DNA from: an uncultured Desulfatibacillum sp.
GTDB taxonomy: Bacteria > Desulfobacterota > Desulfobacteria > Desulfobacterales > SpSt-501
Length of the DNA stretch: 64,000 nucleotides
NCBI GenBank assembly: GCA_964573635.1
Contig: CAZNKG010000004.1
Location: forward strand, 1,352 to 65,351
Reading direction: 5' to 3'
Below, in pieces: positions 21,001 to 22,318 of this stretch; position 1 is the stretch's first letter, and every line of letters starts with the position of its first letter. A program made the translations under genes and the position numbers. The notes under the pieces are model-generated. The model saw only the letters and a program-made list of their open reading frames with translations, made no database searches and was not told where the DNA came from.

Positions 21001-21143
21001 CCGGCCTGCGGGGGTTTCTCGGACTCGCGCCGCCAGCGATCGCCGACCTCGCGGTCATCGCCGCCGGCGCGCTGCTGCCGTTCCTCGCCAACGAGTCCCG
21101 CAAACGGGTCCGCGCGACCCCCGACCATGAGGTGATCCCGTGA
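18090..21143 (+). CDS. P2-type (SERCA/PMCA-like) cation-transporting P-type ATPase with an N-terminal HMA-like domain
   Basis: Cation_ATPase_N-like WHTLEAETV...GLSEALAAERLREHGPNILP. TGES (LTGESLPV), PEGL in TM4 (19308-19319), DKTGTIT, TGDQ, GDGINDGPALK. TM5 has STNMTEI and TM6 has WINIISD (20619-20639). Confidence 0.9.
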   Translation: MIEPIHTKIEGRARFRVDGLLGSDPLKRFLENRLAREKDILSARANTLTGSILINYNSNNNHHTIAFLLEDILMEAGGGAAPPADPPAAEAAAAPPRPSKARELPVDVLKRFLAPPPAARAPEKKPWHTLEAETVAAIVRADPAAGLSEALAAERLREHGPNILPKPAARSGAAIFFEQLNSLPVYLLGAAAGISVLTGGLLDAAVIGAVVLANAAIGYFTESGAEKTMESLKDLVHPTAEVLRGGREIHLPVEEVVVGDLVVLKPGTYVAADCRLLAADRLSVDESMLTGESLPVHKETAPLRHENTPLADRTNMVYMGTLVTGGQGLAVVVATGRHTEVGTLQAMLAETVTPRTPIELQLERMGNQLVVACGAICGVVFGIGFVRGYGLIQMLQMAISLAASAVPEGLPAAATINFAMGITDLRRHGVLVRRLQAVETLGAVQTVCLDKTGTITENRMSVTEIVAGACRYAVCDRRIAPPADGRDPLAAGELRQLLTVCALCNEIKIAATGPAGALEFFGSSTEKALAEVAAAAGLDILGLQEEFRFIGHRLRAENRLFMSSLHACPAQECHAIFTKGSPHEVLDRCDREMVDGRVRPISEDRRQEIHIENDRMAGRGLRVLGFAFNRFALNEEIDEAAPMVWLGLVGMVDPVRPGVKELIAVFHRAGVETVMITGDQSTTAYAVARELNLGGDKPLKILDSAELASLDPERLQALAKNVHVYSRVSPAHKLRIVQALQAAGRIVAMTGDGINDGPALKAANLGIALGESGTDVAREVADIIIAGDRLEELVQALRGGRTTYGNIRKSVHFFLSTNMTEIMVMFVCMALGLGFPLNVMQLLWINIISDIFPGLALSREPAEPQIMSRPPRPAGDPLFSGSDFRRMALESAVISAGALAAYAVGIRRYGQGPQASALAFQTLVFGQLLHAFSCRSDRHGLLDPGRPPANPYLTAAVGGSLALQALTLFVPGLRGFLGLAPPAIADLAVIAAGALLPFLANESRKRVRATPDHEVIP

Positions 21144-22318
21144 TCTTCACATCCGAATCCGTTACGGAAGGCCATCCGGACAAGCTCTGCGACCAAATCA
21201 GCGACAGCATCGTCGACCACTTCCTCAAGCAGGACCCCTACTCCCGGGTGCGCGCCGAGTGCGCGGTCTCGAGCGCGATCATCTTCATCGCCGTGCGCTA
21301 CGCCTCCGAGGCCAAGGTCGACTTCTCCTACCTCGCCCGCAAGGTGATCCAGCGCATCGGCTACGACCAGCCGGACTTCAACGCCAAGATATGCAGCATC
21401 CTTTCGGCCCCGCAGGAGCTGCCGCTCAACATGGCGCACCGCTTCGACGAGGAGAAGCTCACCGACGCGGAGATCGACCGGGTCGCGGCCAAGAACCAGG
21501 TGACGCTCTTCGGGTTCGCCTGCGACCAAACCCCCGAGCTCATGCCGCTGCCCATCATGCTGGCGAACCGCCTCACCCGGCGCATGTCCGAAGTCCGCCA
21601 CCAGAAGATCCTGCCCTACCTGCTGCCGGACGGAAAGGTCCAGGTGGCGGTCACCTTCGACGGCGGCCGGCCGGTGCGCATCCACAGCCTGACCATCATG
21701 GCGAGCCTCGACCAGCCCCGGCAGGTCGACGCCGACAAGCTCGCCGCGGCCCTGGTCGACAGCGTCATCCAGCCGGTCTTCAAGCATGAAAAAATCAAGC
21801 CCGACAAGGAGACGCGCATCCTCGTCAACCCCGACGGCCCCTACGCGGGCGGCCCGACCCACCACTCCGGGCTGACCGGCCGCAAGAGCGCGGTCGACAC
21901 CTACGGCGAGTACGCCCGGCACAGCGGCGACGCGCTGAGCGGCAAGGACCCCATGCGGGTCGACCGCATCGGGGCCTATGCCGCGCGCTACGCCGCCAAA
22001 AACATCGTCGCCGCCGGGCTCGCCTCCCAGTGCGAGGTCATGCTGAGCTACTCCATCGGCATCACCCGTCCGGTGAGCCTCCAGGTCCAGACCTTCGGAA
22101 CCGGGAAGGCCGCCGACGAGAAGATCCGCAAACTCCTCGAGCGGCACTTCGAGTTCCGCATGGCGGGGATCATGAAGCACTTCCGCCTGCGCACCCTGCC
22201 GGCGCGCCACAGCGAGGGCTATTTCCAGCGCCTCGCCGCCTACGGCCATTTCGGCCGCAGCGACATGGACCTGCCCTGGGAGAAAACCGACAAGGCCGAG
22301 CTGCTCAAGGCCGGCTGA
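21140..22318 (+). CDS. Divergent S-adenosylmethionine-synthetase (MetK) paralogue
   Basis: The GTG start overlaps the ATPase stop (GTGA). It has [18 protein letters not shown] and [24 protein letters not shown]. The canonical GAGDQG reads AAKNQV, GDxGLTGRK reads HHSGLTGRK, and HGGGAFSGKD reads [10 protein letters not shown]. Confidence 0.85.
   Translation: [392 protein letters not shown]

Follow-up and report, generated by a model that had tools for sequence, protein, structure and literature searches.

A widespread MetK-like sister clade with a rebuilt methionine site, encoded behind a CoBaHMA P-type ATPase in a phosphate-related gene island of an uncultured Desulfatibacillum

We analysed a gene for a MetK-like protein that lies on a 64,000-nucleotide stretch of DNA from an uncultured Desulfatibacillum sp. 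(contig CAZNKG010000004.1; the whole stretch is called the window below). MetK is the methionine adenosyltransferase (MAT) that makes S-adenosylmethionine (SAM). Sequence comparison places the window protein in a distinct, widespread sister clade of MetK and not as the MetK of its own lineage. The residues that hold methionine in known MATs are replaced throughout this clade and the ligands of the triphosphate, Mg2+ and K+ are largely kept; judging by these residues, the protein is very unlikely to be a methionine adenosyltransferase. It is very probably the dedicated functional partner of the P-type ATPase encoded immediately upstream, and we tentatively suggest below that it handles tri- or polyphosphate. 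The genes and the signal that joins them are as follows:

21140..22318, forward strand: MetK-like gene, a paralogue with the MetK/MAT fold, 392 aa (open reading frame list and sequence)
18090..21143, forward strand: P2-type (SERCA/PMR1-like) P-type ATPase with an N-terminal CoBaHMA (HMA_2) domain (Pfam, NCBIfam)
21128..21134, forward strand: Shine-Dalgarno-like GAGGTGA within the end of the ATPase gene (direct sequence reading)

The open reading frame (ORF) and its complete MAT fold are present as the original prediction, made from the sequence of the window, had described them. The three S-AdoMet_synt domains of Pfam (N, M and C) all match the protein (E 4e-32, 1e-33 and 2e-54, respectively), solved MATs are its best matches in a phmmer search against PDB (E ~2e-98), and an AlphaFold2 (AF2) model (pLDDT 83, pTM 0.85) matches solved MATs in Foldseek with TM-scores of 0.83-0.90. 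The fold-defining motifs quoted in that prediction were all located in the ORF by reading the sequence. GC content at third codon positions (GC3) is 0.94, which marks the ORF as a real coding frame in a window of 70% GC. A pseudogene or decaying gene was considered and rejected, because the ORF is intact, its GC3 is high, the new residues are invariant and identity is 45-86% across phyla. In NCBIfam, the protein passes the cut-off of the metK equivalog model TIGR01034 (378.9 bits versus 309.4). However, this cut-off has no power to separate the paralogue clade from MetK, and hence the score alone would mis-name the protein.

To locate the altered residues, the window protein was aligned to E. 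coli MetK (from NC_000913), and E. coli numbering is used below except for R53, L94, P95, M98, N119, H242 and R273 of the window protein. Conservation was compared between 172 members of the family and 27 canonical MATs. The kept and altered segments of the active site are:

21146-21184, forward strand: kept 13-residue motif (sequence reading)
21296..21298, forward strand: R53, equivalent to the methionine amino-group ligand E55 of E. coli and now Arg (alignment; PMC3853416)
21419..21433, forward strand: start of the gating loop, with L94, P95 and M98 equivalent to E. coli Q98, S99 and I102 (alignment)
21485..21520, forward strand: altered 12-residue motif replacing GAGDQGLMFGYA (G117K, D118N; sequence reading and alignment)
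21626-21646, forward strand: kept PDGKVQV (sequence reading)
21848..21886, forward strand: altered 13-residue motif replacing GGPMGDCGLTGRK (G237H, D238H; R244 and K245 kept; alignment)
21872-21886, forward strand: kept LTGRK (sequence reading)
21920..21964, forward strand: altered glycine-rich triphosphate loop, with its 10-residue core at 21920-21949 (sequence reading and alignment)
21938-22009, forward strand: kept 24-residue motif (sequence reading)

The window protein keeps H14, D16, E42, D163, K165, R244, K245, K265 and D271. The roles assigned to them are those of catalytic acid (H14) and of ligands to Mg2+ (D16, D271), K+ (E42), ribose (D163) and phosphate (K165, R244, K245, K265); the role of K165 is one reportedly found by mutagenesis in the Markham laboratory. 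Family-wide, the Mg2+, K+ and phosphate ligands are kept in at least 80% of members and most of them are invariant, with K165 variable in some members.

The methionine site is altered as a whole. In known MATs, E55 and D238 hold the amino group of methionine, Q98 and K269 its carboxylate and I102 its side chain (PMC1282579, PMC3853416), and at the gating loop Q98, S99 and I102 contact the methionine carboxylate, adenosine and the side chain, respectively (PMC3853416; PMC1282579). The window protein has R53, L94, M98, N119, H242 and R273 in place of E55, Q98, I102, D118, D238 and K269, and the replacements (E55R, Q98L, I102x, D118N, D238H and K269R) are repeated family-wide. D118 reportedly belongs to the methionine site as well (Taylor and Markham, 1999). 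Because Asp238 is kept even in archaeal MATs, where it corresponds to Asp283 of TkMAT (PMC3853416), its loss here is significant. By its three-domain fold, its TIGR01034 score and its ATP/tripolyphosphate-Mg2+-K+ ligands, the window protein would be counted among the MATs; by its methionine-binding residues (E55, D238, Q98, K269, I102 and D118) it would not, and it does not show a housekeeping single-copy methionine-cycle or SAM-regulated context.

The changes go beyond the methionine ligands. In the glycine-rich loop, the window protein carries G258S, G260D, F262L and K269R, with K265 and D271 kept. Across the family, GAGDQG has become aaKNQV and GGGAF has become SG(D/K/A)AL, residues 98-111 of the gating loop have been replaced by a rebuilt loop, and the segment just before AAKNQV is 5 residues longer. 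New basic residues have appeared at several positions (A40R, E55R, G117K/R, G237H/Y, D238H). About 35 positions that are invariant in the 27 canonical MATs are changed across the family members. H238 and R269 occur without exception in the 172 members, and D238H and K269R are found in all of the best 120 database matches of the window protein; substitutions kept in this way across homologues are not due to chance. The adenine contacts are partly relaxed (S99P, T227D/E and deletion of V231 in most members), and F230 is replaced by L, V, I, T or S in about a quarter of the family, the position being aromatic in about 77%. The former acidic methionine pocket, which was made for an alpha-ammonium group, should on this reading of the residues now be strongly basic and electropositive.

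The substrate site had been predicted to be altered, and this is upheld: E55, Q98, D238 and K269 are replaced, and D118 and I102 in addition, with the ligands of ATP, tripolyphosphate (PPPi), Mg2+ and K+ retained. The starts given for two altered motifs were right and their ends were not, since 21485-21502 covers AAKNQV only and 21857-21871 covers THHSG only. Two substituted Asp residues had been connected with both methionine and metal binding. The first part stands, as D118 and D238 are methionine/ribose ligands; the second does not, as the Mg2+ ligands D16 and D271 are intact.

To delimit the family, we used two sets of homologues, namely the best 120 database matches of the window protein and 120 clusters from a Crocosphaera-seeded search. 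The two sets do not overlap, and the family therefore comprises at least 240 distinct clusters at 90% identity. We defined its signature as H238 and R269 together with a basic or neutral residue at position 55. The best 120 matches are 63-100% identical to the window protein and all carry the signature. Scanning GTDB with one genome for each species yielded 80 loci. In a neighbour-joining tree, 55 signature proteins split from 27 canonical ones with a bootstrap of 200/200, and in the trimmed alignment identity within the family has a median of 61% versus 39-52% between family and canonical proteins. The window protein carries all the marks that we propose for the clade: H238/R269, a basic or neutral position 55 and a CoBaHMA P2 ATPase directly upstream.

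Hosts of the family are found in Desulfobacterota, Thermodesulfovibrionales/Nitrospirota, Binatia, Cyanobacteria and Alpha-, Beta- and Gammaproteobacteria. Among the cyanobacteria are Chlorogloeopsis fritschii PCC 6912, Tolypothrix, Crocosphaera and Vacuolonema, and the Crocosphaera-seeded set includes Rippkaea orientalis PCC 8801, Pleurocapsa sp. PCC 7327, Hydrococcus rivularis NIES-593 and a Nostoc. Other hosts are Nitrosospira sp. Nsp14, Thiobacillus, Chromatiaceae, Methylocystis sp. L43, Rhodoplanes and a metagenome-assembled genome (MAG) labelled Mycobacteriaceae. A tblastn search of PLSDB returned only canonical-type metK at less than 50% identity and no plasmid-borne member of the family. 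In the closest GTDB representative, a bin named 'uncultured beta proteobacterium' MFD09779 with 79% identity (L053:1200-2368), both the MetK-like gene and the ATPase gene are split by frame changes, which probably reflect long-read assembly error rather than decay.

The original prediction had left room for the same substitutions being common in bona fide MATs of the lineage. This is not the case, since the substitutions follow the gene family across phyla and not the lineage. In cyanobacteria, 120 of 120 canonical MetKs among the matches listed keep E55, Q98, D118, D238 and K269, and with a cyanobacterial paralogue as query 120 of the 120 matches listed have the altered pattern with H238 and R269. 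The two genes also occur together in one genome, so that the paralogy that had been claimed is borne out both by the monophyly of the clade against canonical MATs and by coexistence. In Pleurocapsa sp. PCC 7327, whose chromosome is finished (CP003590.1, 4,986,817 bp), the paralogue (1,079,267-1,080,451) immediately follows a DUF5132 gene and a CoBaHMA P-type ATPase, and canonical metK lies within 1,459,048-1,463,331, adjoining the methylenetetrahydrofolate reductase (MTHFR) gene metF. Going by source names, Hydrococcus rivularis NIES-593 has both genes too. Every source that names a member of the clade (NCBI, JGI) calls it methionine adenosyltransferase or S-adenosylmethionine synthetase; with a TIGR01034 cut-off that fails to separate the clade, its mis-annotation is systematic.

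The partner ATPase is read from GTG at 18090, where the gene call of the source contig begins; the mechanical start of the ORF is TTG at 17979. Its motifs include CLDKTGT, LTGES, AVPEGLP, STNMTEI and LLWINIISD. Orthologues keep DKTGT, TGES, PEGLP, N..E of transmembrane (TM) segment 5 and N..(S/T)D of TM6 in 44 of 44 cases, and the equivalents of the SERCA Ca2+-site residues E309, N768, E771, N796, T799 (S/T) and D800 are likewise kept in 44/44. The equivalent of E908 is mostly Gln. The protein scores below all NCBIfam equivalog cut-offs (TIGR01522, the PMR1 model and the best match, 569.8 versus 798.3; TIGR01116, 504.3 versus 703.4), and hence the Ca2+-type ion that we assign to it is a prediction.

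The GTG start of the MetK-like gene (21140-21142) overlaps the TGA of the ATPase gene (21141-21143) in the sequence GTGA (21140-21143), as had been pointed out before, and the Shine-Dalgarno-like GAGGTGA lies just upstream. Taken together, the overlap and this site read as translational coupling of the two genes in the window. The claimed coupling to the ATPase gains further support from comparative data. By tblastn, an ATPase orthologue is encoded directly upstream on the same strand in 55 of 55 signature loci versus 0 of 27 canonical metK loci. The gap between the two genes ranges from -40 to +255 nt over the signature loci, and a start/stop overlap is not universal. Pairwise identities of the ATPases correlate with those of the MetK-like proteins (r = 0.83, Mantel p = 0.001, n = 44), which indicates that the two genes are inherited and diverge as a unit. 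The window also encodes a second, similar P-type ATPase (23923-26847, forward strand). It shares 38% identity with the first; in Pfam, its HMA_2 match is weak and below threshold, and Cation_ATPase_C is not matched. The order of a MetK-like gene followed by a second ATPase is also seen in locus L039.

The window as a whole is a phosphate-starvation (Pho) island. It contains phn genes for C-P lyase, a phnCDE-type phosphonate ABC transporter, pstC, pstA and pstS, a PIN-PhoH gene, an OlsF-like ornithine-lipid synthase, glycosyltransferases and a PhoR/PhoB-like two-component pair. The regulator and the repeats that may form its binding sites are:

43338-44075, reverse strand: PhoB-like regulator
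17936..17962, forward strand: Pho-box-like element of three CTAAY direct repeats with an 11-bp period (CTAACCAAATC CTAATCGAAAC CTAAC)
36541-36578: repeat in four copies, upstream of pstC
44113-44139, reverse strand: repeat upstream of the phoB-like gene
15302-15317, reverse strand: repeat upstream of phnC
4778-4793, reverse strand: repeat upstream of the phn operon
28787-28802: repeat between the divergent OlsF and GT4 genes
3882-3897: repeat with no annotated Pho-type gene alongside
23748-23763, reverse strand: repeat with no annotated Pho-type gene alongside

The element at 17936-17962 lies about 130 nt upstream of the ATPase start. In the window, CTAAY-N6-CTAAY has 8 matches and YTAAY-N6-YTAAY has 12, versus 0.01 expected. 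A candidate Pho promoter had been proposed for the pair, and at the level of sequence it is supported, in that the pair shares tandem 11-bp repeats with the core Pho genes pstC, phnC and the phoB-like gene. We consider the ATPase/MetK-like unit likely to be Pho-regulated in this genome. The CTAAY box resembles the cyanobacterial PyTTAAPyPy type rather than the CTGTCAT type of E. coli, and no E. coli-type box (CTGTCA-N5-CTGTCA, up to 2 mismatches) was found in the window. A sigma-70 promoter scan of 15000-24200 gave no promoter-like site, and terminators there were at chance level. Beyond the window, the ATPase gene of L050 (a Pseudomonadota MAG) is preceded at 86 nt by an E. coli-type Pho box (CTTGTCACATAACTGTCACATTAT), and that of L056 (a Desulfomonile MAG) by a triple repeat of the CTAAY type at -85. 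Near the module, triple repeats are present in 10 further family loci versus 0 of 27 canonical loci. As a by-product, the analysis defines the Pho box of the organism (CTAAY, 11-bp period) together with a predicted regulon.

A block downstream of the second ATPase (26796-28772, reverse strand; 28825-30723, 30803-31996 and 32588-33613, forward strand; 33648-36053, reverse strand) encodes an OlsF-like bifunctional acyltransferase, GT4, PIN-PhoH, a further glycosyltransferase and a PPDK_N/PEP-utiliser protein, and looks like a phosphate-sparing lipid-remodelling set. Homologues of PhoH, GT4 and OlsF are also found near the module in L006, L007, L019, L026, L029, L031, L034 and L060.

As to what the protein does, we tentatively favour a neofunctionalised MAT-fold protein that serves as the soluble, tri-/polyphosphate-handling partner of a Pho-induced cation pump. 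That its chemistry is directed specifically at tripolyphosphate or polyphosphate, as the residues suggest, is more tentative still. The triphosphate/Mg/K site would be what selection has preserved. The protein would bind Mg-triphosphate or polyphosphate, be it free PPPi, a short polyphosphate chain or that of a nucleotide, and would hydrolyse the bound chain with release of phosphate (Pi) and pyrophosphate (PPi). Canonical MetK reportedly also hydrolyses tripolyphosphate, with stimulation by bound SAM, according to work of the Markham laboratory. The new Arg, Lys and His residues might stand in for the positive charge of bound SAM in this tripolyphosphatase step. The protein would be made with a divalent-cation (Ca2+-type) pump induced by phosphate starvation, and the pump would handle cations freed or needed during processing of the phosphate chain. 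With its three-repeat Pho-box-like element, the unit probably joins the pst, phn, phoBR-like, ornithine-lipid and glycolipid genes of the window in the Pho regulon. A phosphate-chain function fits the relaxed adenine contacts (F230, S99P, loss of V231) better than strict adenosyl transfer does.

Several points weigh against this view. The retained D163, H14 and aromatic residue at position 230 (about 77%) would fit ATP binding and cleavage at C5'-O equally well. Active-site loops 236-268 are modelled by AF2 at pLDDT <50, and hence no structural argument separates this explanation from its rivals. The proposed chemistry is read from residues, and the part in which basic residues would replace activation by SAM builds on the stimulation reported by the Markham laboratory. 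The polyphosphate genes ppk and ppx are not in the 25 most frequent Pfam families of either batch of flanking ORFs (287 ORFs). The cyanobacterial loci inspected show no convincing Pho box, so that Pho control may not hold family-wide.

The same retained residues could instead serve an adenosyltransferase with a new nucleophile, in which ATP is bound and a non-methionine, probably anionic molecule displaces PPPi from C5'. Its product would be a novel 5'-deoxyadenosyl metabolite that is used by the pump module or moved in connection with it. The family retains H14 as the acid that cleaves C5'-O5', D163, every triphosphate ligand and, at position 230, an aromatic or hydrophobic side chain, and R55, H238 and R269 are near-invariant and not degenerate, which suggests selection for a specific ligand in the former methionine pocket. 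However, the contacts to adenine and adenosine are relaxed (F230 variable, S99P, T227D/E, V231 deleted), clustering and a Pfam census of flanking ORFs revealed no conserved neighbour enzyme to use the product, and the context points to no candidate nucleophile. We regard an adenosyltransferase of this kind as unlikely.

One-to-one pairing, translational coupling and co-divergence suggest a physical complex, and could thus also be explained by a non-catalytic subunit that binds ATP, PPPi, PPi or polyphosphate, thereby senses the phosphate or energy status of the cell, and gates or scaffolds the ATPase. The remodelled pocket is electropositive, and CoBaHMA domains are proposed to bind anionic partners (PMC8890360; bioRxiv 10.64898/2025.12.07.689555, citing Gaschignard 2024). 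By analogy, such a subunit might be likened to the SPX domains that regulate eukaryotic phosphate transporters. However, both the Mg2+ and K+ ligands and the catalytic Lys, Arg and His are kept at identities down to 45%, which exceeds what binding alone usually needs, and no fusion of the two proteins is seen among the matches listed (lengths 341-437 aa). We consider a purely regulatory role less likely again.

A genuine second SAM synthetase isozyme, used under phosphate starvation with non-canonical methionine binding, would agree with the TIGR01034 score above the metK cut-off, with the names given by all sources that name members and with the precedent of archaeal MATs, which bind the methionine carboxylate by other residues (PMC3853416), but it is highly improbable because all methionine ligands are lost together, including the Asp238 kept even in archaea (PMC3853416), three acidic residues near the amino group have become Arg, Asn and His and would repel the alpha-ammonium, the gating loop is rebuilt, a canonical metK beside metF coexists with the paralogue in one finished genome, and the window has neither a SAM riboswitch nor, as far as seen, a methionine-cycle gene beside the MetK-like gene.

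We thus retain the soluble partner that handles tri- or polyphosphate as the favoured explanation. A broader proposal is that the clade forms a second MAT-fold enzyme family, dedicated either to adenosylation of an anionic nucleophile other than methionine or to tri-/polyphosphate processing, whose members are obligate cytoplasmic subunits of a CoBaHMA Ca2+ pump and, with that pump and the DUF5132 and CoBaHMA membrane proteins, make up an apparatus induced by phosphate starvation in which phosphate-chain turnover is coupled to divalent-cation transport; in this full form we find it possible, if somewhat doubtful. The apparatus might act at a Ca-rich inclusion inside the cell, for example polyphosphate or amorphous carbonate granules.

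Recurrent neighbours of the pair were sought by all-against-all clustering of flanking ORFs and by tblastn of window proteins; DUF5132 and CoBaHMA genes usually lie next to it. Those found, and the gene that follows the pair in the window, are:

17063..17335, forward strand: DUF5132 small membrane protein (PF17195, E 1e-11), adjoining the pair in 31 loci
17374..17886, forward strand: stand-alone CoBaHMA (HMA_2) protein of 170 aa (PF19991), recurring in 31 loci as a protein of about 160 aa with a TM hairpin
Recurrent in 27 loci: second CoBaHMA protein, 123 aa
Recurrent in 21 loci, absent from the window: repeat-rich protein of about 230 aa
22384..22947, forward strand: hypothetical protein of 187 aa directly downstream, lineage-specific
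22949..23257, reverse strand: InsA-like double zinc-ribbon protein of ~100 aa, recurring in 14 loci across phyla

The CoBaHMA protein of the window (17374..17886) ends in a hydrophobic C-terminal motif, 'PPWYTAFWYAFG', which we interpret as a TM hairpin. The cyanobacterial DUF5132 protein is longer and has a TM hairpin of the form 'PWY..AWYAFD' at its end (L011:6412-6996, L013, L015, L044, L097:3336-3854), and in other phyla the hairpin terminates the stand-alone CoBaHMA protein instead. This swap of a hairpin domain between the two proteins suggests that they act jointly. The ~230-aa protein is of low complexity, with amphipathic repeats of V, A, G, E and K, and in most of its 21 loci its gene precedes that of the ATPase by 6-13 nt (examples are L010:1623-2318, L012, L014, L020, L023, L025, L028, L029 and L031); it recalls proteins that coat granules or organelles. 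Zinc-ribbon loci include L005, L007, L008, L010, L017, L019, L024, L025, L029, L031 and L039. The 187-aa gene is possibly co-transcribed with the MetK-like gene; tblastn against all loci matched its product in the window's own contigs and nowhere else.

The DUF5132 gene is closely preceded by a gene for an ArsA/Get3-like ATPase of half size whose C-terminal domain is HSP20-like (15445-16644, forward strand) and, after it, a 77-aa AF_1253-like ORF (16631-16864, forward strand). It is conceivable that this pair inserts small membrane proteins. A link to arsenic through the name ArsA was considered and found weak, as the protein is a half-size Get3-like homologue and an ArsA gene lies near the module in only two other loci (L024 and L048). 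Most prominent in Pfam censuses of 287 other flanking ORFs were two-component regulators, extra cation ATPases, PhoH/PIN proteins, Pst-type permeases, PstS-like binding proteins, glycosyltransferases, MgtE, CorA, Na/Ca exchangers (Na_Ca_ex) and phosphatidylserine (PS) decarboxylase. The PhoH, pstSCA-type, two-component and lipid-remodelling genes that recur here, along with the divalent-cation transporters, speak for Pho control. A search of the whole window with Rfam detected no SAM riboswitch or other RNA family. Two stretches further downstream in the window (45965-48694 and 50737-58723, reverse strand) have no relation to the MetK-like gene; they encode a P1B-type ATPase with a classical HMA domain, cytochrome oxidase subunit I and proteins of Alternative Complex III type (ActD, NrfD-like, molybdopterin/Fe-S).

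We compared the system with those already described. The MetK-like protein shares with MetK/MAT its three-domain fold and length, 41-48% identity, TM-scores of 0.83-0.90, the residues H14, D16, E42, D163, R244, K245, K265 and D271, and SGKD together with a 10-residue motif. It differs in the methionine ligands, the gating, GAGDQG and GGGAF loops and the added basic residues, and as a separate clade that is always found behind a P-type ATPase and coexists with canonical metK. The partner pump shares with P2A Ca2+-ATPases (SERCA, PMR1, LMCA1/YloB) the catalytic motifs, the Ca2+-site residues and the best-matching NCBIfam types. It differs from them by the extra CoBaHMA domain, the mostly Gln residue at E908, scores below cut-off and a MAT-fold gene as partner. 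CYTH/TTM inorganic triphosphatases, such as E. coli YgiF and Nitrosomonas NeuTTM, convert PPPi to PPi and Pi at a basic site that holds a divalent metal. If the favoured mechanism is right, the MetK-like protein would carry out the same reaction; the likeness is one of function, as its fold is unrelated and there is no sequence relationship.

The HMA_2 domain is the CoBaHMA domain of Benzerara 2022 (PMC8890360), and proteins that contain it include calcyanin of the CoBaHMA type. In Microcystis, CoBaHMA and DUF5132 genes flank the calcyanin gene ccyA alongside Ca2+ transporters (PMC8890360; bioRxiv 10.1101/2024.07.07.602159). The window resembles these systems in that the ATPase and its 170-aa neighbour carry HMA_2 and a DUF5132 gene is adjacent. 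However, most hosts of the module described here are non-cyanobacterial, and the comparison with carbonate inclusions is one of genes. Pfam scans did not detect a calcyanin (GlyZip) gene in the module, though Pfam may have no GlyZip model. The same two sources (PMC8890360; bioRxiv 10.1101/2024.07.07.602159) mention no MetK-like gene. In the literature searched we found no account of the paralogue or of its pairing with a P-type ATPase, although the CoBaHMA paper of Gaschignard 2024 may mention the neighbourhood, and among the titles listed on 'metK2' none concerns an ATPase-linked paralogue.

MetK/MAT is treated as a uniform, essential housekeeping family, all members of which are named methionine adenosyltransferase by annotation pipelines, and to our knowledge the MAT fold has so far been linked to a single reaction. 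Judged by its active-site residues, this large clade very probably does not hold methionine in the way of known MATs, from which follow a second function of the fold and a mis-annotation that is systematic; for the MetK-like protein, the name methionine adenosyltransferase should be avoided. We know of no characterised P-type ATPase with an obligatory MAT-fold partner or with a dedicated soluble, enzyme-like partner of any kind, and literature searches found none, so that the pairing would be the first such case known to us. It also connects the poorly understood CoBaHMA/DUF5132 modules, which have to date been discussed only in relation to carbonate biomineralisation in cyanobacteria, with the response to phosphate starvation. 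The module is present in cultured strains, namely Rippkaea orientalis PCC 8801, Pleurocapsa sp. PCC 7327, Chlorogloeopsis fritschii PCC 6912, Nitrosospira sp. Nsp14 and Methylocystis sp. L43. Overall, we suggest that there is a realistic chance of new chemistry from the MAT scaffold in this family.

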